DNA of 64,000 nucleotides, taken from NCBI GenBank assembly GCA_021796115.1, contig JAJYOP010000001.1:36778-100777 (forward strand), in the 5' to 3' direction. This document shows, piece after piece, positions 1,410 through 21,027 of the stretch. This DNA is from a bacterium. GTDB taxonomy: Bacteria; Omnitrophota; Gorgyraeia; Duberdicusellales; 4484-171. Each line of letters opens with the position of its first letter. Within the stretch, counting starts at the first letter, position 1. The translations under genes and the position numbers were made by a program. Below the pieces are notes generated by a model. It was not told the DNA's origin. It made no database searches and worked only from the letters and a program-made list of their open reading frames with translations.

Positions 1410-2177
1410 ATGAAAGTAGTAATTTTGGCAGGCGGGAAAGGAACGAGAATCAGCGAAGAAACTGAAAGTTTACCAAAACCAATGGTTGAAATAGGCGGCA
1501 ATCCTATCATCTGGCATATCATGAAACTATATTCTTCTTATGGTTTTAATGACTTTATCATCTGTCTTGGTTATAAAGGTTATATGATTAAAGAATATTT
1601 TTCGCATTATTTTTTGCACATGAGCGATGTAACTATAGATTTAAAAAACAATGACACTAAAATTCATGCAAGCACTTCAGAACCTTGGAAAATCACACTG
1701 GTCAATACCGGTTTGGAAACAATGACTGGCGGGCGTTTAAAGAGAATTGAGAAATATGTCCAAGGCAAAACATTTATGATGACTTACGGTGATGGCGTTA
1801 GTGATGTTAATATACCGGAACTGGTTAAAGCACATAAAATTAACAGGAAATTAGCTACCTTAACGGCAATACAAACTGCCGGTAGATTTGGCCTTCTGGA
1901 TATCGATAAGAAAAATAATATAAAATCTTTTTTGGAGAAACCAAAAACCGAAGGAAGTTGGATAAACGCCGGTTTCTTTGTTCTTGAGCCACAAATATTT
2001 GATTACATCGATGGAGATCTGACCATATGGGAAAAAGAACCATTAGAAAATTTAGCCAAAGAAGGACAGCTGAATGCTTATAAACATATGGGGTTTTGGA
2101 AGTGTATGGATACACTGCGGGATAAGATTGAATTAGAACGTTTATGGAATACTGATGATGCTCCTTGGAGAATATAA
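1410..2177 (+). CDS. rfbF: glucose-1-phosphate cytidylyltransferase (CDP-glucose pyrophosphorylase)
   Basis: N-terminus MKVVILAGGKGTRISEET..PKPMVEIGG.PIIWHIM and length 255 aa are characteristic of RfbF/DdhA. RBS GAGAGG lies upstream. Confidence 0.85.
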   Translation: MKVVILAGGKGTRISEETESLPKPMVEIGGNPIIWHIMKLYSSYGFNDFIICLGYKGYMIKEYFSHYFLHMSDVTIDLKNNDTKIHASTSEPWKITLVNTGLETMTGGRLKRIEKYVQGKTFMMTYGDGVSDVNIPELVKAHKINRKLATLTAIQTAGRFGLLDIDKKNNIKSFLEKPKTEGSWINAGFFVLEPQIFDYIDGDLTIWEKEPLENLAKEGQLNAYKHMGFWKCMDTLRDKIELERLWNTDDAPWRI

Positions 2178-5187: not shown

Positions 5188-6471
5188 ATGAATATCTTTA
5201 CGAAAAAAAACGTTTTTCTATGGCTTTCAATGATTTTTATTTTATTTTTCATTTCTATATTAACCCACCACTTTTGCAGCAAAACCGAATCAATAGTTCA
5301 TTCTGGAATCTATTACAACAGTTTTTCCGGAGACCGGAACATAGCGTCGGTGAAAGAATTTTTTGAAAAAAGAAGAATCCAGCCGGAAAAAATTTCCATA
5401 AGTTTTACGATGAAACCGGAAGATTTGTTATACGACAATGTTTTTCAGACTGCTTCCGATGGAAAAGGCATAAGAATGGAATTATACGCCCCGCCGGCCG
5501 AAAAAGAAGCAAATCTTGACCTTTTTGTCGGGACCATTCCGGGTCTTCCAAAAGTTGAGCAGAGATATACGTTGCTAACAGATGCAAAACGCGGCGCGAC
5601 TTATTCGGTGGATATAAAAATAGATAAAAATAAAAAACTGAAAGTGTGGATAAATAATAGGCTTGTCCTGGACATAACAAATAAAAATCTGCGATATATC
5701 GTTGGCGACATCGCTGTAGGCGCAGGCGCAAATAAAAAGCGGGGCTTTAACGGGGAGATCAAAGATTTTAATATAGAATATAAGATCGTAAAAAGAAGCA
5801 GATGGTTTTTCGTAATAAACATATTGCTTTTTGCCTCGTTTATTTATTTAGTTTGCGGGCCTATATTTAAAAGCTTAAATAGCATTATGAAATCTTTGCG
5901 TAAGTTTATGAAAACAACAATACCTTATAATTTCTTTCTCCGGTTTATAAAAAGAATCATTGAGGGATATAGCTTCCTTGCAGCTAAAGAGAATATTATT
6001 TTATTGCATTTCTTTGTCTGCAGCATAGGGCTGACCACAATACTTAATATCGTATCTTGCGAAATATATAATAATTATTTTACGATACATCCGAAACTTA
6101 GCCTCTGGGCAACCCAATTTTTCTTTCCCGGAAAAGTTGAAGAACTTTTGCTATATATGTTTAGCCTCGTATCTTTTTTCTTATACTACGCATGCGCTTT
6201 CATTATTTTATTCAAAACCAGAAAGGATTTCGGCAACGATTTTTTTGTGTTTATAACAAAGAAATTATTCCGCTTTATTGCCTATCTATCAGCGGCTATA
6301 GCCGGTAATATTTTTATAATAAGCGAGACAATATTTTTCAGACTCCCGGCATTCTTGCCGGCATTTTTCCTCTGGCTCTGCATTTTTTTATTCCCTTTTT
6401 ATTACGGGTATTTATTCTTAAGAAAAGGTACAATTGACAGCCTTTCCGGAAAAACCATAAAAAAGCGATGA
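5188..6471 (+). CDS. family-1 paralog: membrane-anchored ConA/LamG-like domain protein with a 6-TM C-terminal region
   Basis: YDNVFQTASDGKGIRMEL..DIAVGAGANKKRGFNGEIKDFNI is homologous to the N-domains of ORFs 3151 and 8410. There is an N-terminal TM helix and a hydrophobic C-terminal half. Confidence 0.5.
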   Translation: MNIFTKKNVFLWLSMIFILFFISILTHHFCSKTESIVHSGIYYNSFSGDRNIASVKEFFEKRRIQPEKISISFTMKPEDLLYDNVFQTASDGKGIRMELYAPPAEKEANLDLFVGTIPGLPKVEQRYTLLTDAKRGATYSVDIKIDKNKKLKVWINNRLVLDITNKNLRYIVGDIAVGAGANKKRGFNGEIKDFNIEYKIVKRSRWFFVINILLFASFIYLVCGPIFKSLNSIMKSLRKFMKTTIPYNFFLRFIKRIIEGYSFLAAKENIILLHFFVCSIGLTTILNIVSCEIYNNYFTIHPKLSLWATQFFFPGKVEELLLYMFSLVSFFLYYACAFIILFKTRKDFGNDFFVFITKKLFRFIAYLSAAIAGNIFIISETIFFRLPAFLPAFFLWLCIFLFPFYYGYLFLRKGTIDSLSGKTIKKR

Positions 6472-8318
6472 GATTAGTGAAAAATCAATATTGGCTGAAG
6501 TTTGTTACGCAACACAAGTATGATTTTATCGCAGCCGCCTTCATCGTGGCTTTAATCCTACAGATGTTTTCGATGTTCTATCCGTATCTTTCCGGGAAAA
6601 TCGTTGTCGTTAATAATTATATTAATATCCCCGAAGAAACCAAGTCACCTTGCGGGTATATTGATAATTTGAAATATATCGGTTACGTGGCGAAACAAGA
6701 TGCGAATTTGCCTAAACAGCCGCCAAAAGACAATCCCGTAAATGACAAGCGTATAAGCAATGAGGGAACATTAAATAATTGTTTAAGTGTTAGCGAATTT
6801 TTTGACAAAAACCGCACAGAGCTTTCATGGTTGACTATGTGTGGGTGGTTTATGCACCATCATAACGCCCTTCTGGCGCCGATTAATGAATATACCTTGG
6901 GCAGGCATGTCAAAGACATATTTTTTATTTATGGCTCATTTAATACGATAATTCTCGCCGAGCTCATCAAAATGTCCGGCGGGGTAACGCTCGAAAATTA
7001 TTTTAAGGTGTTATATTCATTTTATCCGTTATATTACCTTCTTTTTCTGACGGTTATTTTTATAATCTTTAGGCGCACAAATTACCTGCTTTTATCAGCC
7101 ATCATTGCCTTTTCGTTTTTAAATAATCTTAATTTTATCAGTATCTATCTTGCTCCGGGCTTTAATCCCATACGGCAATTATTCTTTCTGCCCATGTTCT
7201 TATTTTTATATTTATATTTTAAGCAACAAAAAACTATCCTTTTCTTATTGGTCTGTTTTTTTTCTTTAGTGTCATTATTGGCCTGCAAAGAGTTCGGTAT
7301 TTGCGGCATACTGGCTTTATGCGCAATTATATTCATAAAGAATCTAAATGAAAAAAACCCGGCCAGAATGAAAGAGATAACGATTATCCTTATAACTTTG
7401 ATACTCGCATCATTATTCTGGCAACCGGGGAAAAGCAACGCAACAGGCGTCAATTCCCTTAAGTATTCTCTAAGACTGTTTGCACCTCTGGCAGGCAAAA
7501 ATCTTTTAAACTTTATATTAATATGCCTTAGTTTTTGTTATGTAGTTTTTATAAAAGTAATGAAAACCAAAGGATATTTGAAATATTTGGCGCTTTTCCT
7601 GTTTATATATTTTCAGGGAATTCTTGTCTATTACGTCTGGAATCCTGCGCCAAACCACTTTAGCAACATATCAATGCCTCTGGTGTTGATGATTATACTC
7701 ATATTGAAAATTTTCTTAAACAGCTCTCACTTAAAAAAATACGAAAATATTGCCGTAAACACATTAATAATTATTCTGTTTTTCGCTGCCTATCTGCCCT
7801 CCTTAAAATCATATTATTTGGAGAGATCGCCATATCAAAAAATAGTTGATGACCATAAAATCTATGATTGGGATTTGCCTGCCGCAAAGATAAAAAGCAC
7901 CATGAACCCCGGATATTTTTTAAATGCCGTTGAGCTTATACATAAATATTCTCCCGACAGTAATTCGATTTATATAATTTCCAAGTACGATAATTTATTA
8001 CCATTCCTTGCGCGCCGCTATTCGATGATGCCTTACCATGAGGTAGGGGTGAATTTGATAACGGAGAAAGAAGTGAAGCTGTGTATTGATGCTATATTGA
8101 GGGATAAACCGCAATATCTATTCGTTGATAGCGATATCGATGGCGATGAATTCCTTAATAACATAAAAAAATCATCTACTTTAAGAAGAGAAGGGTTAGA
8201 TCCTTCTCTTAAAATAGAAATGTCTGCCGAACTGAGAAAAATCTATTCCGGAGTAAAAGAGTATTACAATCTGCTAAAGCGGGGAGACATTATAAGCGTA
8301 TATAAGTTAAAAGGCTAG
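6468..8318 (+). CDS. family-2 paralog: large polytopic membrane protein with conserved C-terminal soluble domain (putative GT-C-type glycosyltransferase)
   Basis: The ATGA start/stop overlap with ORF 5188 indicates translational coupling. Conserved blocks shared with ORFs 9542 and 18523 are CGWFMHHHNALLAPINEY, NYFKVLYSFYP, SIYLAPGFNPIRQL, FQGILVYYVWNPAPNH, and a C-terminal IYIISKYDNLLPFLARRYSMMP..YLFVD. Confidence 0.5.
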   Translation: MRLVKNQYWLKFVTQHKYDFIAAAFIVALILQMFSMFYPYLSGKIVVVNNYINIPEETKSPCGYIDNLKYIGYVAKQDANLPKQPPKDNPVNDKRISNEGTLNNCLSVSEFFDKNRTELSWLTMCGWFMHHHNALLAPINEYTLGRHVKDIFFIYGSFNTIILAELIKMSGGVTLENYFKVLYSFYPLYYLLFLTVIFIIFRRTNYLLLSAIIAFSFLNNLNFISIYLAPGFNPIRQLFFLPMFLFLYLYFKQQKTILFLLVCFFSLVSLLACKEFGICGILALCAIIFIKNLNEKNPARMKEITIILITLILASLFWQPGKSNATGVNSLKYSLRLFAPLAGKNLLNFILICLSFCYVVFIKVMKTKGYLKYLALFLFIYFQGILVYYVWNPAPNHFSNISMPLVLMIILILKIFLNSSHLKKYENIAVNTLIIILFFAAYLPSLKSYYLERSPYQKIVDDHKIYDWDLPAAKIKSTMNPGYFLNAVELIHKYSPDSNSIYIISKYDNLLPFLARRYSMMPYHEVGVNLITEKEVKLCIDAILRDKPQYLFVDSDIDGDEFLNNIKKSSTLRREGLDPSLKIEMSAELRKIYSGVKEYYNLLKRGDIISVYKLKG

Positions 8319-8409: not shown

Positions 8410-9558
8410 ATGAATAAACTTGGCAAAATACCGTTAATTTTAACTTTGTTTGCGGCTATATTTTATTTCGGCATAATTATTTGTTTAATATCGCCATGGT
8501 TAATCAGCAGCCACAAAAAATACAGCATTCAATCATTTGACAGCCATTCGGGAGAAAATTATAAAATCACGCACAAAGAGATCAAGACAGGAAAAAGTTT
8601 ATTAACGCGAGGCCTAAAGATAAACTTCCGCTTCAAGATTTACCATATTGACGGCTATGATAATCTCTTCCAAACTGCTCCGTATAATTCCGGTATCCGG
8701 ATGGAACTTTCCCCTCCCTCGACGCTGGCTTTGATAGCCGACTGCGGAATGCCGTGGGGGGTAAGGGGGTTTATCGTAAGCGATGAGATAGATACCGGCA
8801 GATGGTATAAAGTTATGATTACGATAAATAAATTTAATCACTTATCGGTTTTTTTGGATGGCCGGTCGATCGTAAACGAAACGCTCCCCTTTTTGCATTA
8901 CAGCCTTTCCGACATAGCCGCAGGTACCGGTTTTGACGGAACCAGGATGTTTAACGGAAAAATTTCTGATTTTAATATCGAAGCAGAAATGGTTTCGCAA
9001 CAGTTGTACGCAAAGTTAAATTTTCTAAAAAAAATTTTGGGAAATATTCTCATTTTCATGATACTTTTTAACATAGCAATCTTAATCGCCGATAAAAATA
9101 GCATCTTACTGCTTATTTTTTTTATTTATAGCTTTGGGTTGATAACTATTTTACCCCTGGTAGCGGATAAAGTTTTTTCCTATAACCTCTTCAACGGGGA
9201 AACTGTAGTCTTTAATGATTGGGCATTAAAATTTGTGTTTTCCGAAAAATCCAGGGATTTACTGTCTTACATATTCATGACCTTATCGCTTTTCTTATAT
9301 TATTTCCTGTTTTTTGTTCTGACATATACGCGCAAGGGCGGCCATGGCAGAATCTTTGCTTTATTCTTCGCGCAAAAGGAGTATAAGATTTGGCAGTATT
9401 TATTTATAGCAATGGCGGTAAATTTATTAATAATAAGATTAGGGAAAATATATCATGGGCCATATTTGCTAAGCTTTCAATATATTATATGGGTTCTCTC
9501 TTTTTTTGCATCCATACTAACCCCATTAATAAGAAATAAATATGTCCAGCAAATTTAA
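8410..9558 (+). CDS. family-1 paralog: membrane-anchored ConA/LamG-like domain protein with a multi-TM C-terminal region
   Basis: YDNLFQTAPYNSGIRMELSPPSTLALIAD..WYKVMITIN..DIAAGTGFDGTRMFNGKISDFNI, with an N-terminal TM helix. Confidence 0.5.
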   Translation: MNKLGKIPLILTLFAAIFYFGIIICLISPWLISSHKKYSIQSFDSHSGENYKITHKEIKTGKSLLTRGLKINFRFKIYHIDGYDNLFQTAPYNSGIRMELSPPSTLALIADCGMPWGVRGFIVSDEIDTGRWYKVMITINKFNHLSVFLDGRSIVNETLPFLHYSLSDIAAGTGFDGTRMFNGKISDFNIEAEMVSQQLYAKLNFLKKILGNILIFMILFNIAILIADKNSILLLIFFIYSFGLITILPLVADKVFSYNLFNGETVVFNDWALKFVFSEKSRDLLSYIFMTLSLFLYYFLFFVLTYTRKGGHGRIFALFFAQKEYKIWQYLFIAMAVNLLIIRLGKIYHGPYLLSFQYIIWVLSFFASILTPLIRNKYVQQI

Positions 9559-11377
9559 AAATACTAAGCATACCAGCGCGTTGCATAATATATTTAAAAT
9601 TAATTACCTATTATTATTTCTGGTTGCGGTAATTTTTATTCAAATTTTCTCTATGTTCATACCCTATCTTACGGGTAAAGTGCTTATTACGAATGACTAT
9701 ATTAATATATCCGAAACTACAAAATTGAGAGAAAGATATTTTGATAACACGGAATTTATTCAGAAAGAATGCCTGCGTCATTCCGGTTCTGGAGCAAAAA
9801 CTTTTACTTTGGCTACGGGAATGTCTGGAGGCGGCTACGCAAATTCAAATTTATCAAAGACATTTTTTTCTGCCAATCGTCATGAATTTGCATGGCAGTC
9901 TCAATGCGGATGGCTGATGCATCATCAAAATACTTTATTGTCGCCGATCAACCAGTTCTATTTAGGAAAACAATTGAGCAGAATCAGTCAGCAATACGGC
10001 AGTTTAACTACCGCCTTTTTAACATTCTTAATTAAACTCAGCGGCGGATTAACTTTTGACAATTATTTCAAAGTTCTTTATTTTTTCTACCCATTTTACT
10101 ATTTATTATTTTTTATTGTCTCCGCCTATCTGCTCCGGGACAGTAAGTATCTTTTGCTGGTGGCTGTACTTTCGGCGAGTTTTTTATTTAAACTTTCCTA
10201 TGTTTCCATATATTTGGCCCCGGGGTTTAACCCTATTCGGCAATTGCCGTCATTGCTGGTTTTATTCTTTCTCATGCTGTACCTTCGAAAACGGAAAACC
10301 TCTTCATTTTTCTTGATGCTGGCTTTCTCTATTTTAGCAGTTATTAACAATAAAGAATTTGGATTTTTTGCCGTTGCCGCCGCCACCATAAGTTTGTTTC
10401 TTGAAAATTTCCTTGAAAAAATACCCTTGGGCAGGGGGAAATTTTTTTTCCTGACAGCAACTTTTTTGATTTCTGTTTATCTATTCTTTTTTATACATAT
10501 GGGCAGCAACCCCCTAGAGAAATATTATTTTGTGGGGATCTCGGGGCCTATTATTGACAAGTTTATCTTAAAACTAATCCTGATCATTTTTAGTTTGGTT
10601 TATTTCCTGATCTATAGATTATTGAGGCGCGATAGTGGCCTAAAATATATAGCTGTTTTTTTGTTCTTTTATATTCAAGGAATATTGCTTTATTATATCT
10701 GGGATCCGGCCCCTAACCACTTATTTAGTATATCTAGTCCCCTGGCGCTTTTACCGGTTATTTTGTTAAAGCTTATACTGGATGGTTGGCAGAGGGATAT
10801 AAATAGGAATTTAGTTATTGTGCCCCTTGTTTTGTGCTTATTTTCATTTTTATATTTACCTTCCTGGCGCGGGTACAATAAGGAAAAAGCAATATACCAG
10901 AAAATTTCCGCTGACCATAAAATTTATTCCTGGGATCTTGCGCGAGCGAGGATTAAAACCACCATGAATCCGGAATATTTTATAAACGCAGTCAACCTGA
11001 TACAAAAATATTCAAAAAACAGCAATGGGATTTACATCATATCACAATACGATAATTTTTTGCCGTTTCTCGCGCGAAAATACAGCGCAATGCCGTTTGA
11101 CGAGGTAGCTATAAGTTTATTAACCAGCCGCGAGGTAAATGACTGCATTAATAAAATCTTAAACGATAAACCAGAATACATTTTTATTGATACAGGAATC
11201 GAAGAGGGTATCTATGACAAAGATAAGAATAAAATCCTTGCTTATTTGTCTGCACATTATGATTTTTCCAATAAAATCAAAATGTGGCACGAGCTAAAAA
11301 AAGTCTATATGGGCGTAAAGGATTCCTACCGGTTGATTGAAAAAAGTGATATAATTAGCGTTTATAAAAAGAAATAA
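9542..11377 (+). CDS. family-2 paralog: large polytopic membrane protein with conserved C-terminal soluble domain
   Basis: Overlaps ORF 8410 by 17 nt. Shares all conserved blocks with ORF 6468: CGWLMHHQNTLLSPINQF, SIYLAPGFNPIRQL, YIQGILLYYIWDPAPNH and the C-terminal IYIISQYDNFLPFLARKYSAMP..YIFIDT. Confidence 0.5.
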   Translation: MSSKFKNTKHTSALHNIFKINYLLLFLVAVIFIQIFSMFIPYLTGKVLITNDYINISETTKLRERYFDNTEFIQKECLRHSGSGAKTFTLATGMSGGGYANSNLSKTFFSANRHEFAWQSQCGWLMHHQNTLLSPINQFYLGKQLSRISQQYGSLTTAFLTFLIKLSGGLTFDNYFKVLYFFYPFYYLLFFIVSAYLLRDSKYLLLVAVLSASFLFKLSYVSIYLAPGFNPIRQLPSLLVLFFLMLYLRKRKTSSFFLMLAFSILAVINNKEFGFFAVAAATISLFLENFLEKIPLGRGKFFFLTATFLISVYLFFFIHMGSNPLEKYYFVGISGPIIDKFILKLILIIFSLVYFLIYRLLRRDSGLKYIAVFLFFYIQGILLYYIWDPAPNHLFSISSPLALLPVILLKLILDGWQRDINRNLVIVPLVLCLFSFLYLPSWRGYNKEKAIYQKISADHKIYSWDLARARIKTTMNPEYFINAVNLIQKYSKNSNGIYIISQYDNFLPFLARKYSAMPFDEVAISLLTSREVNDCINKILNDKPEYIFIDTGIEEGIYDKDKNKILAYLSAHYDFSNKIKMWHELKKVYMGVKDSYRLIEKSDIISVYKKK

Positions 11378-11378
11378 A

Positions 11379-12257
11379 ATGAATATATTTATTACCGGCG
11401 GTTCCGGTTTTATCGGAAAGAATATCATAGAATTTTTATCCAAAAAACATACTGTTTTCGCCCCTCCCCATAAGGAATTGGAGCTTTTGGATGCGGATGC
11501 GGTTAAAAAGTATTTCGAGCGTTATTATTTTGATGTAGTTATTCACAGCGCGGTGCGTCCCGGTCACAGGAACGCCAAAGACCCGACGAACCAGCTTTAT
11601 AACAACCTGCGCATGTTTTTTAATCTCATGCGCAACAAGAGCCGTTTTAAGAAGCTTATTTTTATCAGTTCAGGAGCGGTCTATGATATAACGCGTTCAT
11701 TGTCGATGGTTAATGAAGATTTCTTTGATGCGTATGTTCCGGCCGATGAGCATGGATTTTCAAAATATATTATTGCAAAACACATAGAACAGCTTGACAA
11801 TATAGTCGAATTGCGCGTTTTCGGCATATTCGGCAAATACGAGGATTACGCGATAAGGTTCATATCAAACGCTATATGCAAAACAATTTTTGACTTGCCT
11901 GTAACCATAAAACAGAATAGAAGATTCAGCTATTTATATATTAATGATTTTGTACCAATTCTTGATTATTTTATCAATAATGATTGCAGATATAAGGCAT
12001 ACAATGTTACGCCGGATGAAGGCATAGAATTATGCGATATAGCCAAGAAAGTAAGAAGTATTTCTGGGAAAGATTTGCCCATAAATATTGCCAAATCCGG
12101 AATGGGGCTTGATTATAGCGGCAGTAATAAAAGGTTGCATAACGAAATCAAGGGCTTAAAATTCACCGGCATCGATTCGGCGATTAAAGAACTACATGCT
12201 TGGTACTTGCAGAACGCCGCTTCAATAAACAGGGATTTTTTACTTTTTGATAAATAG
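11379..12257 (+). CDS. NAD-dependent epimerase/dehydratase family protein (nucleotide-sugar epimerase/reductase)
   Basis: MNIFITGGSGFIGKN Rossmann motif and YIIAK (YxxxK), 292 aa. Confidence 0.7.
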   Translation: MNIFITGGSGFIGKNIIEFLSKKHTVFAPPHKELELLDADAVKKYFERYYFDVVIHSAVRPGHRNAKDPTNQLYNNLRMFFNLMRNKSRFKKLIFISSGAVYDITRSLSMVNEDFFDAYVPADEHGFSKYIIAKHIEQLDNIVELRVFGIFGKYEDYAIRFISNAICKTIFDLPVTIKQNRRFSYLYINDFVPILDYFINNDCRYKAYNVTPDEGIELCDIAKKVRSISGKDLPINIAKSGMGLDYSGSNKRLHNEIKGLKFTGIDSAIKELHAWYLQNAASINRDFLLFDK

Positions 12258-12259
12258 AA

Positions 12260-14068
12260 ATGATTAAATTATCGGATTATATAGTCAAATTGTTCCTTGA
12301 ACATAAAGTCAGAGATGTCTTTATGATATCGGGCGGAGGAGCCATGCATCTTATTGACTCCGTGGGTAAGGAAAAGAAGATAAAATATTTATGCCCGCAT
12401 CACGAACAGGCGGCGGCAATGGCGGCCGAAGGGTATTCACGGGTCAGTGGGAAAATGGGAGTAGTTGTGGTGACTAGCGGCCCGGGAGGTACGAATACCC
12501 TCACTGGTGTTATTCAGCAATGGCTTGACTCAATCCCTTGCCTTTATATATCCGGGCAGATTAAGGAAGAAACAAGTATTGTTTCTTGCCCTGATTTGGG
12601 ATTACGGCAATTAGGCGACCAGGAGATAAATATTGTAGATATCGTCCGGCCCGTAACCAAATATGCGGTTATAGTCAGAGATCCTTTAAGTATTCGCTAT
12701 CATCTGGAAAAAGCCATATACCTGGCTACGCATGGCCGGCCGGGGCCAGTATGGCTGGACATTCCTTTAAACGTCCAGCCAGTTATGATTGATGAAAATA
12801 GATTAGAAGGGTTTAAGCCTGATACAGAAATAGAAAGAAAGAAGCTTCAACTTTCAAAACAAATTTCCGAAACAATAGCTTTGTTAAGAAAAGCAGAAAG
12901 GCCTGTATTTTTAGCGGGGCATGGTATAAGGCTTTCAGGCGCGCAGGATGTTTTCAGGGGATTCATAGAAAAAACCCGCATCCCCGTTTTGACTACTTTT
13001 TGCGGCTTTGATTTATTGCCGTCGGATCACCACTTATATGCGGGCAGAGTGGGGACTTTGGGCAACCGTTCTGGCAACTTTGCTTTGCAAAACGCGGATG
13101 TTTTGCTCTCTGTCGGTTCCAGGAATAATATCCGGCAGGTAAGTTATAATTGGAAGGTTTTTGCGAGGGCCGCCAAGAAAATTGTCGTAGACATAGATGA
13201 AGCTGAACTAAAAAAACCAACAATTAAGCCGGATGTAGCGATTCAAGCCGATGCCAGAGTTTTCTTGACGGAGCTTCTTAAACAAAGTAAAACCATAAAA
13301 TTTCCTGTTTGGAACAAATGGCTTAATTGGTGCATGATACGTAAAAACAAATATCCAGTGGTGTTAAAAGAGTATTGGAAAAGCAATAATCCAGTAAATC
13401 CTTATTGCTTTATAGAAACCTTGACGAATGTTTTAAAAAGAGATACCATTCTCGTTTCAGCTAATGGAACTGCCTGCGTGACATTGTTTCAGGCAGGGGT
13501 TGTTAAAGAAGGCCAGAGAATGTTTTGGAATTCCGGCTGCGCCTCTATGGGCTACGATTTGCCGGCAGCAATCGGCGCGTGCGTGGCTAATAATAATAAA
13601 CCGGTGGTATGCCTGGCGGGAGACGGCAGCCTGCAGATGAATATCCAGGAACTTGAGACCGTTATTGCCTATAATCTGCCAGTAAAGATTTTTGTTCTTA
13701 ACAACAACGGGTATATTTCGATGCGCCAGACGCAGGATGCGTTTTTTTCGGGAAGATATGTCGCCTGCGGCCCCGAAAGCGGAGTAAAATTTCCCGATAT
13801 TTTAAAGGTAGCCAAAGCTTACGGATTTAAGACAAAATCAATAAGCGCTCATAACGAGATGAAGAGAAAAATAAAAGAGGTCCTTAAAACTACGGGTCCG
13901 GTGCTATGCGAAGTAAAAATATCGCAAGATTATAAATTTATCCCCAAAGTATCGTCGCAGTTAAAACCGGACGGCAAATTGGTTTCAAAGCCTCTGGAGG
14001 ATATGTTTCCCTTTTTGCCGCGCGAAGAATTTTATAGCAATATGATTATAAAACCATTACCTGAATAA
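12260..14068 (+). CDS. thiamine-diphosphate-dependent enzyme, acetolactate-synthase/YerE-like
   Basis: TPP-enzyme N-domain (HEQAAAMAAEGYSRVSGKMGVVVVTSGPGGTNTLTGV) and the C-terminal TPP-binding motif GDGS..N-x(25)-NN (CLAGDGSLQMNIQELE..VLNNNGY). 602 aa. Confidence 0.75.
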   Translation: MIKLSDYIVKLFLEHKVRDVFMISGGGAMHLIDSVGKEKKIKYLCPHHEQAAAMAAEGYSRVSGKMGVVVVTSGPGGTNTLTGVIQQWLDSIPCLYISGQIKEETSIVSCPDLGLRQLGDQEINIVDIVRPVTKYAVIVRDPLSIRYHLEKAIYLATHGRPGPVWLDIPLNVQPVMIDENRLEGFKPDTEIERKKLQLSKQISETIALLRKAERPVFLAGHGIRLSGAQDVFRGFIEKTRIPVLTTFCGFDLLPSDHHLYAGRVGTLGNRSGNFALQNADVLLSVGSRNNIRQVSYNWKVFARAAKKIVVDIDEAELKKPTIKPDVAIQADARVFLTELLKQSKTIKFPVWNKWLNWCMIRKNKYPVVLKEYWKSNNPVNPYCFIETLTNVLKRDTILVSANGTACVTLFQAGVVKEGQRMFWNSGCASMGYDLPAAIGACVANNNKPVVCLAGDGSLQMNIQELETVIAYNLPVKIFVLNNNGYISMRQTQDAFFSGRYVACGPESGVKFPDILKVAKAYGFKTKSISAHNEMKRKIKEVLKTTGPVLCEVKISQDYKFIPKVSSQLKPDGKLVSKPLEDMFPFLPREEFYSNMIIKPLPE

Positions 14069-14085
14069 TTATAAAGGGGGAAAAG

Positions 14086-14889
14086 ATGAATGTTTTAGAG
14101 AATCGCATGATCAATATTTTAAAAGAGCTGAAGGAGAAGAACGGCGCAATTGCCGTAAGGGCCGAGTTTGAAGCTGAAGGCACAAGACTTGACGAATTAT
14201 TCCGCCTTAAAGAGATAAGCGTACGCGCCGGTTTGGGCCTGGTTTTAAAAATAGGCGGCTGCGAATCCATAAGAGATATGCTTGAATCACGCATCGTGGG
14301 GGTAAATTGCCTGGTCGCACCCATGGTTGAATCCGCTTACGCCTTACGCAAATATTTGCAGGCGATAAAGAAAGTTTTCACGGCCCAGGAGCGCAAAAGC
14401 ATAAAAATTTCATGCAATATCGAAACGGTGACCGCCTGCCAAAATCTAAAAGAAATGCTTGAAATACCTGAGATAAGCGTGCTTCACGGCATAGTTATAG
14501 GAAGGGTGGATTTATGCTTTTCTTCGGGGAAAAACGAAGAATACGTTAATAACAAAGAAATAACCAAATTAGTCCGCGAGGCAATTGCCGCCGCAAAGAA
14601 GAAGAATCTTGTCTGTATGATGGGCGGAGGGTTATCTCCGGAAAGTATGGAAATTTTTAAAGATCTGTCCGATGGCGCTCTTGATTATTGTGAAACAAGA
14701 AAGGTTTGCTTTTTGTATCCGAAACTTTTGGCCACCGATTATAAAAAAGGCATCTTAAAAGCTCTTGGTTTTGAATTGTTATGGCTCAAGAATAAAGCAA
14801 CATATTATAAAGGCATTACCGATGCCGACAAAGCAAGGCTGTCTTTGATTGAGCAGAAGTATTTAAATGAATTGGACTCTCTGATTTGA
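14086..14889 (+). CDS. HpcH/HpaI aldolase / citrate-lyase-beta family protein (paralog 1)
   Basis: CLVAPMVESAYAL matches the PMVE(T/N) motif of the family. NIETVTA..GIVIGRVDL matches the QIET..GvfiGPaDL motif. Confidence 0.55.
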   Translation: MNVLENRMINILKELKEKNGAIAVRAEFEAEGTRLDELFRLKEISVRAGLGLVLKIGGCESIRDMLESRIVGVNCLVAPMVESAYALRKYLQAIKKVFTAQERKSIKISCNIETVTACQNLKEMLEIPEISVLHGIVIGRVDLCFSSGKNEEYVNNKEITKLVREAIAAAKKKNLVCMMGGGLSPESMEIFKDLSDGALDYCETRKVCFLYPKLLATDYKKGILKALGFELLWLKNKATYYKGITDADKARLSLIEQKYLNELDSLI

Positions 14890-14937
14890 AGTAAAATTAG
14901 TAGATTGTTTATTATCATCCAATAAAAGGAGGCAAAA

Positions 14938-15732
14938 GTGACTATTACCGAACTTAAAATGGTCGATATATTGAAAAAGTTGAAAGACTTATATTACGCC
15001 GTAGGCGTAAAGGCCGAGTTTGAAGCTGAAGGGACGCGCACTGAAGAACTGGTCAGGCTTAAGGAGCTCTGCCTTGCCGCAGATGTCTCACTCACCTTAA
15101 AAATTGGAGGCTGTGAAGCCATTCGTGATATGTATGACGCGAGGGCTATTGGCGTTAATTATATGGTTGCCCCCATGGTAGAAACGCCTTTTTCTCTGCA
15201 GAAGTATTTAAAAGCTATTGATATAGTTTTTTCCGCAGACGAACAGGAAGAAATAGACTTTCTTATTAATATTGAAACAAAACTAGCGGCAGATAATTTT
15301 TCCGATATGTTGAAGATAACAGAAATTAAAAAACTCGACGGTATCGTAATGGGCCGAGTTGATTTTGTTGGTTCTATGGGGCTTGATAGAAAAGCAGTCA
15401 ACGGCGATAATATATTGACCATTACACGGGACCTTATTTCTGCGGCAAAAATGCATGATTTAACTTGTGTTGTCGGTGGCGCAATTTCTGTGGAGTCCCT
15501 GCCATTTTTAAGAAAATTGCCCAAAGCTTGTCTGGATAGGTATGAGACTAGAAAGATATGCTTTTCTTGTCCCGAAGCGCTTGGCGAAACCGCAGACAAA
15601 GGCATTTCAAAAGCTGTTGAATTTGAACTACTATGGTTAAAAAGTAAGCAAAATTATTATACAGCTATTTCTAAAGAGGATGATAAGCGTATAACAATGC
15701 TTGAAGAAAGATTCAGGCAGAGTAAAAAATAA
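14938..15732 (+). CDS. HpcH/HpaI aldolase family protein (paralog 2, tandem duplicate of 14086..14889)
   Basis: Roughly 45% identical to the upstream ORF (AEFEAEGTR, KIGGCEAIRDM, MVAPMVETPF, NIETKLA, GIVMGRVDF). GTG start with RBS AAAGGAGG. Confidence 0.55.
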   Translation: MTITELKMVDILKKLKDLYYAVGVKAEFEAEGTRTEELVRLKELCLAADVSLTLKIGGCEAIRDMYDARAIGVNYMVAPMVETPFSLQKYLKAIDIVFSADEQEEIDFLINIETKLAADNFSDMLKITEIKKLDGIVMGRVDFVGSMGLDRKAVNGDNILTITRDLISAAKMHDLTCVVGGAISVESLPFLRKLPKACLDRYETRKICFSCPEALGETADKGISKAVEFELLWLKSKQNYYTAISKEDDKRITMLEERFRQSKK

Positions 15733-15779
15733 TTCGTTAGTCTATCGTATTAATATCCCGCAGGCGGTTTATTAAAAAT

Positions 15780-16448
15780 ATGGTCAAAAGAAGAGCCCTT
15801 ATAACAGGCGGTTCACGTGGCATAGGCAAGGCCATTGTCGACTTGCTGGAAGATAAAGGCATCTTTGTATTGGCTCCTTCCAGAAAAGAAATGAATTTGC
15901 TCTCTGATTCCGCCATAGATAAATATCTCTCTTCTTTAAAAAAGCCAATCGACATAATAATTAATAACGCAGGAATTAACCTTTTATCGGCAGGGTATGA
16001 ATTGGAAGAAGACAATATCAGGGAGAGTTTACAGGTAAATCTGCTTGCGCCTTTACGCATCATAAGGAAAATTATTCCTGATATGATGCATCAGAAATAT
16101 GGCCGCATAGTAAATATAAGCTCCATATGGAGCGTTATTACTAAGCCGAGGCGTTTAACCTATACAATGACAAAATCAGGATTAAATGGAATGACTAAAT
16201 CTTTAGCTATAGAATTGGCTCCATATAATATCCTTGTTAACTGTATTGCCCCAGGATACGTTAATACAGAGCTTACGAGAAAAAACAATTCTTCAGAAGA
16301 GATAGAAAATATAAAAAATACAATCCCTCTAAAACGTTTGTCAGAACCTGTAGAAATAGCTGAAATTGTATCTTTCCTTGTTTCAGAAAAAAATTCTTAT
16401 ATCACAGGCCAGGTAATCATTGCAGATGGAGGGTATACATGCCTGTGA
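15780..16448 (+). CDS. short-chain dehydrogenase/reductase (SDR)
   Basis: ALITGGSRGIGKAI, NAGI and YTMTK (YxxxK), 222 aa. Confidence 0.8.
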   Translation: MVKRRALITGGSRGIGKAIVDLLEDKGIFVLAPSRKEMNLLSDSAIDKYLSSLKKPIDIIINNAGINLLSAGYELEEDNIRESLQVNLLAPLRIIRKIIPDMMHQKYGRIVNISSIWSVITKPRRLTYTMTKSGLNGMTKSLAIELAPYNILVNCIAPGYVNTELTRKNNSSEEIENIKNTIPLKRLSEPVEIAEIVSFLVSEKNSYITGQVIIADGGYTCL

Positions 16449-17533
16449 TTAAAATAAAATCAAATATTGGTAATTATAATGTTTTATTTGGAAATATCGC
16501 CGCATATTTAAAAGACATTGAAAAAAGAGGATTACGGAAATGTTATATTATCGATGAGAATGTTTGGAAAATATATAATAAAAAAGAATTAAATAATATC
16601 AATAAAGACGAAGCGATAATCTTACCAATTTCAGAAACAAAAAAAAATCTTAATACGGTAAAATGGTTATATAATACACTTATTGAACGTTCTGCAAAAC
16701 GTAATCTGACGATTATCTCTGTTGGTGGAGGTATCACTCAAGACATTACGGGCTTTCTTGCTTCAACATTGTATCGCGGAGTTAACTGGATATTCATTCC
16801 GACAACGTTTCTGGCTCAAGCCGATAGTTGCATAGGAAGTAAAACATCTTTGAACTATCGAAATTTCAAAAATCTGATTGGCACCTTTTACCCGCCGTCA
16901 GAAGTTTTCATTGACCCAGGTTTTATTTATAGCCAAAAAACTCTTGATTTTTATAGCGGTCTCGGAGAAGTTATAAAACTTCATCTTATGGGTGGGATTG
17001 ATAAAACAAAAGATTTGCTCCGGGCGTATCCCGAAATCATTGCGAAAGATAGAAAAACATTAGAAAAAATAATTTACAATGCACTTACCATAAAAAAAGC
17101 TTATATAGAAAACGATGAATTCGATAGAGGAAAAAGAAATTTACTTAATTATGGCCATTGCTTTGGCCACGCGCTGGAAACAACATCCAGATTTAAAATA
17201 CCTCACGGCATCGCGGTTTTGTTCGGTATGATGCTGGCTAATATTATTGCCTGTAGCAGAAATCTTCTTAAAAAAGATTTTAAAGAATTTATTTTTAGCA
17301 AAGTATTTTTACCTTCAGCATGTATCTTACCGAAAAAATCCTGGCTGCAGAAAGAGGCTGTGTTAGGCGCAATGAAAAAAGATAAAAAACGCACAGGAAA
17401 AGATCTGGCGTTAATCATGCTAATGGATGGTTGCCGCATGATGAGGGTAAATGACGTGTCAGAGAAAGAGGCTATTAATGCCTTAAGACAATTGGAATAC
17501 TGTTTAAACAAAGATTCCCTTAATAAGTTATAA
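16439..17533 (+). CDS. 3-dehydroquinate-synthase-like sugar-phosphate cyclase family protein
   Basis: GGGITQDITGFLASTLYRGVNWIFIPTTFLAQADSCIGSKTSLN, KNLIGTFYPP, GEVIK and NYGHCFGHALE all align with the DHQS-family signature blocks (nucleotide-binding site and metal-His sites). Confidence 0.7.
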   Translation: MPVIKIKSNIGNYNVLFGNIAAYLKDIEKRGLRKCYIIDENVWKIYNKKELNNINKDEAIILPISETKKNLNTVKWLYNTLIERSAKRNLTIISVGGGITQDITGFLASTLYRGVNWIFIPTTFLAQADSCIGSKTSLNYRNFKNLIGTFYPPSEVFIDPGFIYSQKTLDFYSGLGEVIKLHLMGGIDKTKDLLRAYPEIIAKDRKTLEKIIYNALTIKKAYIENDEFDRGKRNLLNYGHCFGHALETTSRFKIPHGIAVLFGMMLANIIACSRNLLKKDFKEFIFSKVFLPSACILPKKSWLQKEAVLGAMKKDKKRTGKDLALIMLMDGCRMMRVNDVSEKEAINALRQLEYCLNKDSLNKL

Positions 17534-17544
17534 AGGGTAGAAGT

Positions 17545-18489
17545 ATGCAAAAAATTATTTCAATAGTTATATCTGCTTTTAACGAGGAGGGTTGCGTAGA
17601 AGAATTAGCTATCCAACTTAAAAAAGTATTTGCGCAAAATAATAATTATACATTTGAAGTTATCATGGTCGATAATGGCTCTACAGATAGGACTTTTGAA
17701 AAGCTTTTCGAAATACACAGAAGTGACGACAAATTCAGAATACTTCAATTGGCAAGGAATTTCGGCATGGATGGCGGCATAACTGCCGGCTTAAAATATG
17801 CAAAAGGGGATGCTGCTGTAATAATGACAGCAAATTTACAAGATACACCTTCTTTGATTACCGAATTTATAAAAAAATGGGAAGAAGGTTATGAAAATGT
17901 TTATGGTATCGTCAAAAAACGCACAGGTAAAGGTCTGATTCGTAGAATGAATTCGCAAATTTTTTATTTTATCATTAACCGTATGACAGGCAGCCTGATA
18001 CCGAAGAATGTAAGCGATTTTAGGCTGGTAGATAGGAAGATTTATCAAACAATCAATGTGATGGATGAAAGGAACAGGTTTTTAAGGGGGATGTTTGCCT
18101 GGGTGGGTTTTAAGTCTGTCGGTATAGAATATGAGAGAGGCAAGAGGTTTGCGGGAAAATCTCACGCGCTTTCAAAGAATGTCTTTTCGTTGGCTATTAG
18201 AGGAATTTTCGCTTTTTCTTATGTACCTATACGTTTTATCGCTGCCTCAGGATTCCTCCTGTCGTTATTTTCTTTTATTTTTCTTATAATTTCTATTTTA
18301 GGGTTTTTTATAAAAGGAGTACCTTTTAAAGGATACGGAATGATTGTTTCTTTGATAGTATTTATGTTTAGTTTGGTATTTTTTATTTTGGGCATATTGG
18401 GCCAATATATAGCTCAGATTTACGAAGAAGTAAAGGCAAGGCCTAATTATATAGTAAAAAAGCTAGTCGGGCTTACTGAGGCGAAGTAA
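17545..18489 (+). CDS. GT2 polyprenyl-phosphate glycosyltransferase (GtrB/ArnC/DPM1-like) with C-terminal TM helices
   Basis: IVISAFNEEGCV..VIMVDNGSTDRT GT2 N-domain with two C-terminal hydrophobic helices, 314 aa. This architecture is typical of undecaprenyl-phosphate sugar synthases. Confidence 0.75.
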   Translation: MQKIISIVISAFNEEGCVEELAIQLKKVFAQNNNYTFEVIMVDNGSTDRTFEKLFEIHRSDDKFRILQLARNFGMDGGITAGLKYAKGDAAVIMTANLQDTPSLITEFIKKWEEGYENVYGIVKKRTGKGLIRRMNSQIFYFIINRMTGSLIPKNVSDFRLVDRKIYQTINVMDERNRFLRGMFAWVGFKSVGIEYERGKRFAGKSHALSKNVFSLAIRGIFAFSYVPIRFIAASGFLLSLFSFIFLIISILGFFIKGVPFKGYGMIVSLIVFMFSLVFFILGILGQYIAQIYEEVKARPNYIVKKLVGLTEAK

Positions 18490-18522: not shown

Positions 18523-21027
18523 ATGAATAAGATTAACATAGCCGTTAAAAACATTATAAAAAAAAATATATTTATACTTTCCGCAACACAATTACTTCTT
18601 TCCGTTATTTTCGGCGCCGTTTGTTTGTGGAAAGGCGTAAATTTTTTAAAGAACCAGACGATAATTATTGCCAATTCCAATTTTAACCCCTGGGTTTATC
18701 CTTTTTTTCACCCTACCGAATACTCACTGCCTAATTATTTGTTTCTATGTTTATTACTTGCTTTGGTAGGAATTTTGATATATATTTTGAATCCCACCAA
18801 AATAATAAAAAGATTTTCTGAAACGGTATCCCCTTATTATCTGCTTATTTCGTTGGTTGCTTCCGTCTCTTTTTTCTTTATATTTTTTATTCAAAGCTGT
18901 TTTGTGCATTCAGACCCCGGCCGCCTGCTTGGCTTATTTTTCCCCGCTTTGATTGCGATAGTGCCTTTCGTGCCGAATATTTTTTCCTTTTCGAATAAAT
19001 ATTTGTATAAATCGGCCGTAATCGTTTTATTTTTAATAATCGTATGGGAAGTGTTAAGAATTTTTATGGGCCCGGTATATATTATGAATGAATACCCAAG
19101 GCTATATGGTAAAACATTAATAGAAGGCAGATACGTAGATAACAAGGATTTCTTAGAAAAAGTCAAGCCGATAGATAAAGAGTTAATCAAACTTGCCGTT
19201 TTTTATCGCGACAAAAATAAATACAAAGGTATCGGCGGGTATTACAAGATAAAAAAATATAAAAATTTAAGGTTAGAGCAAAATTTTATCAATCTGCTTA
19301 ATGACGATGGATTCAATATCCTGATTGATAATTTTATCAAAGGAAACACTCATTTTGTCGACAAAGGAAACATTTTAGAATTAGATGAAATAGCTTTGCA
19401 AAATGACAATAATTTGGCAAGTATCATGCGAAGCCGCTTAAGGCAGATAGACGTAGAAAATATAAGGCTCTTTTATGTTTATAACATGCTTGAATATTAC
19501 CATCAGGACATGGGGCGGGGGCAGATTAACCATATCGGTTACGTATTGAATCCTTTGAACGAATATAGCTCCGGCAAGCCGCTGAAAGAGCTTTATATGC
19601 AATACGGCTTAGGCAATACCTTGCTCATGAAGTGGACGATGGGGCTTTTCGGAGGCATGTCCATTCAAAATTACTATAAATGTTATATATATTACATTAT
19701 ATATTTCATTCTTGCTTTCTTTACCCTGCAGTTTCTTTTTAGAAATATTTTTTTCAGCCTCGCTTCTTTTGCCGCTTTTACCTATTCGTTGTTCGGCGTA
19801 GGATTCCTCGGTTTTATTTTGGCCCCCGGCATAATACCCACCATACATTTTTTTGACATAATAGTCTTAACGTTTTTAATCCTGTTCTTTAAACGCAACA
19901 ACAAAGCCTATCTGACAGCAGCTTTTCTGTCAACGGCGCTAGCCATTTTTATAAACGCTCAATTCGGGGCAATGCTTATGCTGGCCTGCTTTATCTCCTT
20001 TACCCTCTATATTCTTGAGAATAAGAAAGGCAACCCCAAGTTAATGTGGTTAGCCACGCTATTTATCGCATTAATATTGAATATCGCTTTGCTGTTATTT
20101 TTACTGGAGAGGACCTCTTCTTTGGATATTTTTAAATATCTTGTCAGCGGTTTTCTTTCCTGGCCGGCTCACTTTATAATTATTTTCCTTACGATCGTAT
20201 ATTTGATTATTTCTTATGCCTTTATGTTTTTATTAAAAAGGCACAGATTTTATCTTAAGTATATTTATGCCTTTTTTTTCATCTATACGCAATTTCTGTT
20301 TGTCTATTATTATTGGTCCGGTTTGCCGAACCACCTTCCGATGGTCATACCGTTTCTTTGCACGCAGCTGTTTTTAATGCTGTTCATACTAAGAACAGAA
20401 ATATTCGGTTTCTCTGAATATTTGATAATAATGGTCGATATCGTGGCAAAAGTATTTTTGATTATCGTAGGGTTTCTCCTGCTTATATCAATAATAAGTT
20501 TTTATAGGGAAAAAAACCAGTTTGAGGAAAACTTTGCGCAACATAGACTTCATCACTGGGATTTTGAGCGTGCCAAAGTTTTATCCACAGTCGATCCCGT
20601 TCCAATAGAAGACAGCATAACATTGATAAATAAGTATGTGCCGCAGGAGGAAGGCGTATATATTATTTCAAAATACGATAATTTAATCCCGTTTTTAGCC
20701 AAAAAGCCAAGCCTGATGCCTTTTTCCGAAATGGCCGTCTTCCTGATTTCCAAAAAAGAAAGCGATACGACAATACAAAAAATAGAGCGGATCAAGCCAA
20801 GATACATTTTTGTTGATAACGATATCAGCGAAAATATTAATGATCCCTGGGGAAAATTATTTAGCAACAACTTTATTAATACCGAAAGAGCAGCAAGGTA
20901 CGGCAGGTATATGGAGTTAAAGAAGCTCTTTGACCGGATCATCCCTCACTATAAGAAAATTTTTCAGGGTAAACTGCTTTCTGTCTATGAGAGGATACCC
21001 GGTGGACAGCCAAAGGATAAAATATAG
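18523..21027 (+). CDS. family-2 paralog (divergent, 834 aa): polytopic membrane protein with an extra N-terminal/soluble insertion and the conserved C-terminal domain; putative GT-C partner of the upstream GtrB-like enzyme
   Basis: Shares GQINHIGYVLNPLNEY..GG.SIQNYYK, the PNH motif (WSGLPNH) and the C-terminal VYIISKYDNLIPFLAKKPSLMP..YIFVDND with ORFs 6468 and 9542. Confidence 0.5.
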   Translation: MNKINIAVKNIIKKNIFILSATQLLLSVIFGAVCLWKGVNFLKNQTIIIANSNFNPWVYPFFHPTEYSLPNYLFLCLLLALVGILIYILNPTKIIKRFSETVSPYYLLISLVASVSFFFIFFIQSCFVHSDPGRLLGLFFPALIAIVPFVPNIFSFSNKYLYKSAVIVLFLIIVWEVLRIFMGPVYIMNEYPRLYGKTLIEGRYVDNKDFLEKVKPIDKELIKLAVFYRDKNKYKGIGGYYKIKKYKNLRLEQNFINLLNDDGFNILIDNFIKGNTHFVDKGNILELDEIALQNDNNLASIMRSRLRQIDVENIRLFYVYNMLEYYHQDMGRGQINHIGYVLNPLNEYSSGKPLKELYMQYGLGNTLLMKWTMGLFGGMSIQNYYKCYIYYIIYFILAFFTLQFLFRNIFFSLASFAAFTYSLFGVGFLGFILAPGIIPTIHFFDIIVLTFLILFFKRNNKAYLTAAFLSTALAIFINAQFGAMLMLACFISFTLYILENKKGNPKLMWLATLFIALILNIALLLFLLERTSSLDIFKYLVSGFLSWPAHFIIIFLTIVYLIISYAFMFLLKRHRFYLKYIYAFFFIYTQFLFVYYYWSGLPNHLPMVIPFLCTQLFLMLFILRTEIFGFSEYLIIMVDIVAKVFLIIVGFLLLISIISFYREKNQFEENFAQHRLHHWDFERAKVLSTVDPVPIEDSITLINKYVPQEEGVYIISKYDNLIPFLAKKPSLMPFSEMAVFLISKKESDTTIQKIERIKPRYIFVDNDISENINDPWGKLFSNNFINTERAARYGRYMELKKLFDRIIPHYKKIFQGKLLSVYERIPGGQPKDKI

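Follow-up and report, generated by a model that had tools for sequence, protein, structure and literature searches.

In a 64,000-nucleotide stretch of contig JAJYOP010000001.1 (assembly GCA_021796115.1, from an uncultured low-GC bacterium of the phylum Omnitrophota; hereafter the window), five adjacent genes (12260-17533) encode a thiamine diphosphate (ThDP)-dependent enzyme, two tandem aldolase-like proteins of the HpcH/HpaI family, a classical short-chain dehydrogenase/reductase (SDR) and a protein resembling dehydroquinate synthase (DHQS). As far as the sequences can tell, this module probably serves precursor synthesis for a cytidine diphosphate (CDP)-linked deoxyhexose with a long acyl-derived branch, of the caryophyllose type, within a surface-glycan locus of about 40 kb. 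The DHQS-like protein belongs to NCBIfam family TIGR04425, and there is perhaps an even chance that proteins of this family, together with the translationally coupled SDR, form a non-cyclising pair for eliminative dephosphorylation and deoxygenation, which would make an omega-deoxy alpha-keto acid from a 3-deoxy-ulosonate omega-phosphate. An earlier note on this DNA had suggested either a branched-chain, higher-carbon sugar or even a carbocyclic one as the product; the first is now the best reading, whereas the second is disfavoured by the alternation, in other genomes, of the DHQS-like gene with phosphatases of the haloacid dehalogenase (HAD) superfamily.

The combination of a ThDP enzyme, a pyruvate aldolase, a reductase and a CDP-hexose pathway is already known as a published scheme (PMC9306805). 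According to Steitz et al. 2022 (PMC9306805), ErwE, MMAR_2332 and MyGE, which are YerE-like enzymes, use gamma-hydroxy-alpha-keto acids that originate from pyruvate aldolases and attach them to CDP-4-keto-3,6-dideoxyglucose, a YerF-like reduction then following, and this "unifying scheme for acyl-branched sugars" accounts for erwiniose, caryophyllose and gastriose. In Mycobacterium marinum, MMAR_2331 (of the aldolase/citrate-lyase family), MMAR_2332 (the ThDP enzyme) and MMAR_2333 (a family 2 glycosyltransferase, GT2) are all needed for caryophyllose (PMC9306805), the side chain of which is a 1,3,4,5-tetrahydroxyhexyl group that ends in a methyl. The RefSeq annotation of the M. marinum locus lists MMAR_2327 (GT87 family), MMAR_2329 (annotated as a protein of the 3-dehydroquinate synthase family), MMAR_2331 (aldolase), MMAR_2332 (ThDP-binding), MMAR_2333 (GT2), MMAR_2334 (a cytidylyltransferase for glucose-1-phosphate), MMAR_2335 (RfbH) and MMAR_2336 (CDP-glucose 4,6-dehydratase; PMC12395582, supplementary table). 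Thus, the opinion of the earlier note that these enzyme classes are not normally seen together does not hold, given this annotated set and the cassette conserved in many phyla that is described below. A ThDP enzyme, a pyruvate aldolase and an NAD(P)H oxidoreductase are likewise encoded together in the window, at 11379-16448.

All five open reading frames (ORFs) are found on the forward strand, consecutive and closely spaced or overlapping as had been described, at distances of +17, +48, +47 and -10 nt, the last being an overlap of the SDR stop with the DHQS-like start. The range 12260-17533 is correct for these five genes and leaves out others that are part of the same unit, namely the gene of a 292-aa extended SDR (11379-12257, +), which is followed after 2 nt by the ThDP gene, a GT2 gene (17545-18489) that begins 11 nt after the DHQS-like gene, and the CDP-glucose genes (1410-3151). 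The extended SDR matches Pfam Epimerase/RmlD_sub_bind, carries the motifs GGSGFIG and Y130xxxK, and is a candidate YerF-like reductase that would act on the C1' ketone of the side chain.

The ThDP enzyme (602 aa, 12260-14068, +) contains the Pfam domains TPP_enzyme_N, M and C (E 1e-31 to 1e-39) and, at residues 454-483, a GDG-x26-NN cofactor motif that falls within the pattern GDG-X(24-27)-NN. Its closest solved relative is JanthE (8rph; 422 bits, E 2.4e-125), a characterised YerE-like, ketone-accepting carboligase (PMC12188165), and the alignment runs over the full length, C-terminal tail included, whereas that to 5ahk stops at residue 563. In contrast, Arabidopsis acetohydroxyacid synthase (AHAS) reaches at most 265 bits, the score against the IlvB equivalog TIGR00118 (404.5) lies under the cut-off of 538, as do the scores against all other equivalogs of acetolactate synthase (ALS) and AHAS, and no small ALS subunit was found near the gene. 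It therefore resembles characterised YerE-like enzymes more than it does acetohydroxyacid synthases, in agreement with the first proposal that it is YerE-like, and it shares the glycan locus with genes of CDP-hexose synthesis such as the cytidylyltransferase gene at 1410-2177 (TIGR02623). By this homology it is predicted to transfer an acyl anion equivalent onto the ketone at C4 of a CDP-4-keto sugar. It differs from JanthE in its cofactor motif, a canonical GDG where JanthE has CDG. YerE itself, of the yersiniose A pathway of Yersinia pseudotuberculosis, which the YerE-like enzymes JanthE, PpYerE and ErwE resemble, likewise goes with CDP-glucose synthesis; it takes pyruvate as donor, adds a C2 branch and needs no aldolase, whereas the aldolase and the DHQS-like/SDR pair of the window (or the HAD phosphatase elsewhere) imply a long functionalised donor. 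A phosphonate pathway, with phosphoenolpyruvate (PEP) mutase and phosphonopyruvate decarboxylase, was considered as well and rejected, since there is no match to a PEP_mutase profile and the ThDP enzyme is of the full-length, 600-aa YerE/ALS type.

The two HpcH-like paralogs, A (267 aa, 14086-14889, +) and B (264 aa, 14938-15732, +), belong to the class II pyruvate-aldolase, (beta/alpha)8 pyruvate/PEP-domain fold, exceed the gathering score of PF03328 HpcH_HpaI (37.8 and 39.9 against 25 bits) and are 48% identical across 259 residues, close to the 45% given before. They are nonetheless divergent members, only 14-16% identical to the solved class II aldolases HpaI, YfaU and GarL, from which their family also differs in having motifs of its own (AEFEAEGT, KIGGCE, ETRK) and a long C-terminal helix. 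It is a compact family, comprising 460 clusters at E<=1e-30 and, out of 1.84 billion representatives, no more than 1406 at E<=1e-3, and it is well separated from mainstream HpcH. A PDB search with a single HpcH-like sequence gave no match; the family profile weakly matches the YfaU and HpaI structures, and in the profile alignment to 2vws E113 and D142 align with the metal ligands E153 and D179 of YfaU. Both residues are invariant in 42 sequences, as is R140. The region of HpaI R70, the catalytic arginine that polarises the pyruvate carbonyl, aligns weakly with the profile, and the invariant K55 or R40 may replace it. Tandem paralogs are limited to the window, to Omnitrophota and to some delta-proteobacteria; paralog A sits in a clade that occurs in tandem loci only, and paralog B is nearest to the single-copy form of most genomes.

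The SDR (222 aa, 15780-16448, +; adh_short_C2, E 4e-44) is a classical one with intact cofactor and catalytic motifs (TGGSRGIG, NNAG, Y128xxxK) and is the putative C6 ketoreductase. The DHQS-like protein (364 aa, 16439-17533, +) has both the DHQ_synthase and the DHQS_C domain and, as the earlier note had recognised, all of the signature blocks of the family. It is not a bona fide AroB, in line with what the note had expected: it scores 409.6 bits on TIGR04425 (cut-off 400), a family described as an AroB-related putative sugar phosphate phospholyase, and 256.6 bits on aroB TIGR01357 (cut-off 305). Against the sugar-phosphate cyclases 2-epi-5-epi-valiolone synthase (EEVS), 2-deoxy-scyllo-inosose synthase (DOIS) and desmethyl-4-deoxygadusol synthase (DDGS) it scores lower than against AroB: AroB structures reach about 140 bits, DOIS 2d2x 111, EEVS/ValA 4p53 92 and DDGS 5tpr 77. 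No other aro genes were found within the window.

We scanned GTDB species genomes with HpcH-like motifs and scored the ORFs of 80 retrieved loci (designated by L numbers) against the window proteins; 50 of the 80 are fully flanked, i.e. by 5 kb or more on either side. A member of the HpcH-like family is encoded by at least 467 of the GTDB species genomes, including those of Omnitrophota, delta-proteobacteria, Nitrospira, Chloroflexi, Planctomycetes, Spirochaetes, Bacteroidales, Melainabacteria, Elusimicrobia and Verrucomicrobia, and two cultured species, Effusibacillus consociatus and Gabonibacter massiliensis, are among the carriers. In every one of the fully flanked loci the ThDP gene adjoins the HpcH-like gene (50/50), a cytidylyltransferase homolog is present in 38/50, and the SDR and DHQS-like genes are both present or both absent (present in 34/50). 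A homolog of the 292-aa SDR stands directly before the ThDP gene or the aldolase gene in 30/50, and a GT2 gene follows the cassette in 30/50. The usual order is aldolase first, then SDR and DHQS-like, and in two Omnitrophota loci (L002 and L004) cytidylyltransferase, dehydratase, 292-aa SDR, ThDP enzyme, two HpcH-like proteins, SDR and DHQS-like protein are contiguous. Five DHQS-like homologs, from Omnitrophota, Syntrophaceae and further lineages, have the same genes around them. Such a recurrence of one gene order in dozens of unrelated genomes means that the grouping is not due to chance, and the window neighbours and the cassette loci of other genomes alike speak for a glycan rather than a shikimate or amino-acid context, as had been supposed. 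The conserved cassette most likely builds a surface-glycan sugar with a long polyhydroxyalkyl branch.

Among the retrieved loci the DHQS-like gene never occurs without its SDR partner, and the 10-nt overlap seen in the window recurs in nearly all pairs; the one SDR found without a DHQS-like gene (L055) is only 706 bp away from the end of its contig. In 50/50 cassette homologs of the DHQS-like protein D129, K135, N145, E177, K180, K219, R233, N237, H240, H244, H256 and K317 are invariant, and they align with positions of the AroB structures that we take, by reference to the Aspergillus nidulans DHQS structure, to be ligands of the nicotinamide cofactor NAD, the metal, the phosphate and the carboxylate. 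Two substitutions are specific to the family, GHTFGH to GHCFGH and HGE to HGQ or HGI.

Two further observations concern the retrieved loci. On a Melainabacteria chromosome (L072; CP091731, about 10.8-13 kb) the ThDP gene, which lies beside an HpcH-like gene, is itself split into five ORF fragments, with neither a HAD nor a DHQS-like gene present, and this looks like a decaying cassette. In several relatives, a gene of the DegT/DnrJ/EryC1 family (435-445 aa) accompanies the cassette (L002, 9370-10677; L008, 11091-12404; L081, 5997-7334; also present in L005); its size and family fit RfbH/E1, i.e. 3-deoxygenation, and an amino-sugar aminotransferase is possible too.

The retrieved loci were also compared according to the DHQS-like gene, 50 having it and 30 lacking it. 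A HAD gene is present in none of the former (0/50, anywhere in about 20 kb) and in 24/30 of the latter, directly adjacent to the aldolase gene (Fisher's exact test, p = 3.7e-15), and of the six DHQS-lacking loci that have no HAD gene either, three are truncated contigs. The slot after the aldolase gene is filled by two unrelated HAD families, NagD-like HAD-IIA and phosphoglycolate-phosphatase-like HAD-IA, neither of which is carried by the window. In the aldolase tree, loci of the HAD type and of the DHQS type are intermingled, and in one pair of sister loci, L031 (HAD) and L034 (SDR and DHQS-like; its DHQS-like homolog scores 404.7 bits on TIGR04425), the aldolases are 96% and the ThDP enzymes 92% identical. 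Accordingly, a search for specificity-determining differences between the aldolases of the two types gave no separation. This mutual exclusion is not described in the literature accessible to us.

The interleaving and the near-identity of the sister loci indicate that in both types of loci the donor is an alpha-keto acid, and one of similar shape. The alternation of a phosphatase with the DHQS-like gene, in turn, is an indication that the aldolase product carries a phosphate, i.e. that the aldehyde is an aldose phosphate, and that this phosphate must go before the acid becomes the ThDP donor, or as it does so. In the simplest reading, the phosphate is removed either by hydrolysis (HAD, leaving a terminal CH2OH) or by elimination of the DHQS type followed by SDR reduction (leaving a terminal CH3). 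Since the residues that correspond to AroB ligands are invariant, the substrate of the DHQS-like protein may be expected to be a heptulosonate 7-phosphate like 3-deoxy-D-arabino-heptulosonate 7-phosphate (DAHP), which points to pyruvate and erythrose-4-phosphate as its precursors.

The pathway that we propose would thus run as follows. CDP-glucose would be made and then dehydrated to a CDP-4-keto-6-deoxyhexose, going by the family matches of the two enzymes. One or both HpcH-like aldolases would use pyruvate and an aldose phosphate (erythrose-4-phosphate being the most likely one) to form a DAHP-like 3-deoxy-2-ulosonate phosphate, on which the DHQS-like enzyme may carry out the first half of DHQS chemistry, namely oxidation by NAD+, beta-elimination of phosphate and re-reduction. 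The coupled SDR would reduce the resulting 6-ketone, so that an omega-deoxy alpha-keto acid (3,7-dideoxyheptulosonate) is obtained instead of a carbocycle. This acid would be decarboxylated by the YerE-like ThDP enzyme, which would add the remainder to C4 of the CDP-keto sugar, a step suggested by homology to characterised YerE-like enzymes and by the published scheme; the 292-aa SDR would then reduce the C1' ketone in YerF-like fashion, and the GT2 and polytopic membrane proteins would pass the sugar on to the glycan, probably by way of polyprenyl phosphate. In genomes where a HAD gene takes the place of the pair, the side chain would be the omega-hydroxy form. If 3,7-dideoxyheptulosonate is transferred with decarboxylation and then reduced at C1', a 1,3,4,5-tetrahydroxyhexyl branch would result, which is exactly the side chain of caryophyllose. 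No E1/RfbH or other DegT homolog was found across the 64-kb window, so that there is probably no 3-deoxygenation and the core is probably 6-deoxy and not 3,6-dideoxy. As the window has no HAD gene either, the predicted product is a 6-deoxyhexose with an omega-deoxy polyhydroxyhexyl branch.

With respect to M. marinum, the comparison by annotation shows a gene set (MMAR_2327-2336) that matches the window apart from RfbH, and the logic is the same: an aldolase-derived alpha-keto acid, a YerE-like enzyme and a CDP-4-keto sugar, then reduction. The GT2 MMAR_2333 is at a position corresponding to that of the window GT2, and GT87-family genes are present in both, MMAR_2327 in the lipooligosaccharide locus of M. 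marinum and the GT87-like genes in the window. The window differs in having no RfbH/E1, in its two tandem aldolase paralogs and in its host, an uncultured low-GC bacterium. No Mycobacterium entries were found among the cluster members of high-GC-looking representatives or among matches to an aldolase from an Actinomycetota metagenome-assembled genome. For the DHQS-family gene of the caryophyllose locus we found no role proposed in the accessible literature, which did not include an in-silico survey of 2024 that covers more than 200 YerE-like clusters.

Several points weigh against the reading of the pair as non-cyclising, and against the pathway built on it. The DHQS enol-pyranose intermediate cyclises readily, and every motif-checked AroB active-site residue is retained in the invariant set; taken together, an intact AroB active site and so facile a cyclisation mean that a non-cyclising outcome would need interception by the SDR. 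The NCBIfam label of TIGR04425, a guess of the curators, says "phospholyase (cyclizing)". The sole basis for naming the aldehyde, be it erythrose-4-phosphate or another aldose phosphate, is the conservation of DAHP-binding residues. The pathway does not account for the presence of two aldolase paralogs, and the genes for 3-deoxygenation, E1 (RfbH) and E3, which belong to the acyl-branched scheme, are missing from the window, so that the acceptor differs from the one used by the systems characterised so far.

The first of these points, and the family label, would favour an alternative in which the DHQS-like protein is a true cyclase that converts a DAHP-like ulosonate phosphate, or some other sugar phosphate, into a carbocycle; after reduction by the SDR, the cyclitol would enter the glycan or serve as acceptor of the YerE-like enzyme, and YerE-like enzymes do take cyclic ketones in vitro. 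We nevertheless consider this unlikely. A HAD phosphatase replaces the pair in 24 of 30 loci, and hydrolysis can stand in for the removal of phosphate and not for the formation of a carbocycle; enzymes that are 92-96% identical between a HAD-type and a DHQS-type locus imply the same donor and acceptor logic in both, and a cyclised product would no longer be an alpha-keto acid. Moreover, the M. marinum locus has an annotated DHQS-family gene, yet caryophyllose is acyclic with a terminal methyl. The likeness of the DHQS-like protein to AroB, DOIS, EEVS and DDGS, which includes both domains and the aligned positions of the metal, phosphate and carboxylate ligands, goes along with a different setting, in that the protein stands in glycan cassettes, always has an SDR partner and can be replaced by HAD phosphatases, and with a different proposed outcome, elimination without cyclisation.

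One may also consider that the DHQS-like protein and the SDR act before the aldolase, in which case an aldose phosphate (e.g. erythrose-4-phosphate) would be converted to an omega-deoxy aldose (4-deoxytetrose) and only then condensed with pyruvate, with the same end product. Condensation of pyruvate with an unphosphorylated aldehyde is indeed what has been proposed for the caryophyllose aldolase (PMC9306805), and dephosphorylation before the aldol step fits the alternation of HAD and DHQS-like genes equally well. However, one would not expect the carboxylate-site residues K219 and R233 to be invariant in 50/50 homologs if the substrate were a neutral aldose phosphate, the usual gene order has the aldolase first and the pair after it, and a free tetrose phosphate cannot form the pyranose that is bound by DHQS-type sites, so that we give this order of events only a small chance. 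Finally, that an IlvB and an AroB of primary metabolism have been displaced and merely happen to sit in a glycan locus, as the general nature of the Pfam domains and a close resemblance to the ALS and AroB families might suggest, is extremely improbable and effectively ruled out, for both proteins fall under the curated equivalog cut-offs, neither a small ALS subunit nor another shikimate gene is nearby, and the same gene set lies beside CDP-glucose genes in dozens of genomes across phyla.

The glycan locus in which the module is embedded spans about 1 to 39650 of the window and is followed by housekeeping genes (xseA, pnp, ftsK, rodZ and miaB). It contains flippase-like proteins, Wzy_C/O-antigen-ligase and Bac_transf proteins, GT1, GT2, GT9 and GT87 enzymes, and methyltransferases. 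The glucose-1-phosphate cytidylyltransferase (1410-2177, +) scores 406.8 bits on TIGR02623 (cut-off 300), and the extended SDR encoded next to it (2165-3151, +; Pfam GDP_Man_Dehyd/Epimerase) is CDP-glucose 4,6-dehydratase-like, TIGR02622 being its best match with 229.6 bits, which falls short of the cut-off (278). The GT2 (17545-18489, +; Glycos_transf_2), of the PgfS/ArnC/GtrB type, has its best NCBIfam matches in PgfS (234.6 bits) and ArnC (127.8 bits), each under cut-off, and carries C-terminal hydrophobic segments; it is the probable polyprenyl-phosphate glycosyltransferase for the finished sugar. The 834-aa membrane protein encoded after it (18523-21027, +; 16 hydrophobic segments, no Pfam match) is a candidate extracytoplasmic transferase. 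It is one of three paralogous polytopic proteins in the locus (6468-8318, 9542-11377 and 18523-21027; 616, 611 and 834 aa), each with 9-16 hydrophobic segments, related to one another at pairwise E-values of 1e-60 to 1e-155 and without a match in Pfam or NCBIfam. Homologs adjoin the GT2 gene in the cassette loci L005, L012, L014, L021, L045, L047 and L053, and the trio may represent an undescribed family of extracytoplasmic glycosyltransferases.

Other features of the locus are worth recording. The product of 3124-5118 (+) is a GT87-like GT-C membrane glycosyltransferase (PF09594, E 1e-12; 10 hydrophobic segments), and the genes at 3124-5118, 5188-6471 and 8410-9558 are mutual paralogs; with a fourth GT87 gene at 38447-39649, assigned by its Pfam match only, the locus has four GT-C enzymes, an unusually high number. 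The ThDP, aldolase and SDR genes (12001-16000) have a GC content of 0.40-0.43, as compared with 0.34-0.36 in the flanking glycan genes, which could reflect either horizontal acquisition of the cassette or merely stronger sequence constraint. A GT9 (heptosyltransferase-family) gene at 36578-37534 and a Wzy_C/O-antigen-ligase-like gene at 34605-35810 suggest that the low-GC source organism is a diderm with a lipopolysaccharide-like glycolipid. Two redox genes lie inside the locus, one for an FAD-dependent oxidoreductase (25847-26974) that resembles L-2-hydroxyglutarate oxidase and glycerol-3-phosphate oxidase with scores under the cut-offs, the other for a Zn-dependent alcohol dehydrogenase (360-1397) and adjoining the cytidylyltransferase gene; both enzymes may be involved in further tailoring of the sugar or the side chain. 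The product of 28501-30228 is a 575-aa protein with an N-terminal S-adenosylmethionine-dependent methyltransferase domain and, in its middle part, a weak, sub-threshold Pkinase match (E 6.5e-6).

Caryophyllose and similar long-branched sugars are carried by surface glycolipids that influence how M. marinum, as a pathogen, interacts with its host. The non-cyclising pair, if it acts as proposed, would add a new outcome to the reactions of the dehydroquinate synthase superfamily and would supply the missing step that makes the terminal methyl of caryophyllose-type side chains, and the choice of a genome between omega-deoxy and omega-hydroxy side chains would be made by exchanging the pair for a HAD phosphatase. 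The orphan family TIGR04425 thereby obtains a candidate function, and the alternation of the DHQS-like/SDR pair with HAD predicts the side-chain terminus (CH3 or CH2OH), a prediction that can be checked in two cultured carriers. The locus of E. consociatus CCUG 53762 (L078) is of the SDR and DHQS-like type, for which a 4-C-branched 6-deoxyhexose with a CH3 terminus is predicted, and that of G. massiliensis GM7 (L081) is of the HAD type, with CH2OH as the predicted terminus. The ketone-accepting ThDP carboligase and the divergent pyruvate aldolase have some interest for biocatalysis as well. Since the cassette is present in at least 467 species-level genomes, mostly of uncultured phyla and including gut Bacteroidales and Melainabacteria, such sugars are probably far commoner than has been recorded structurally.

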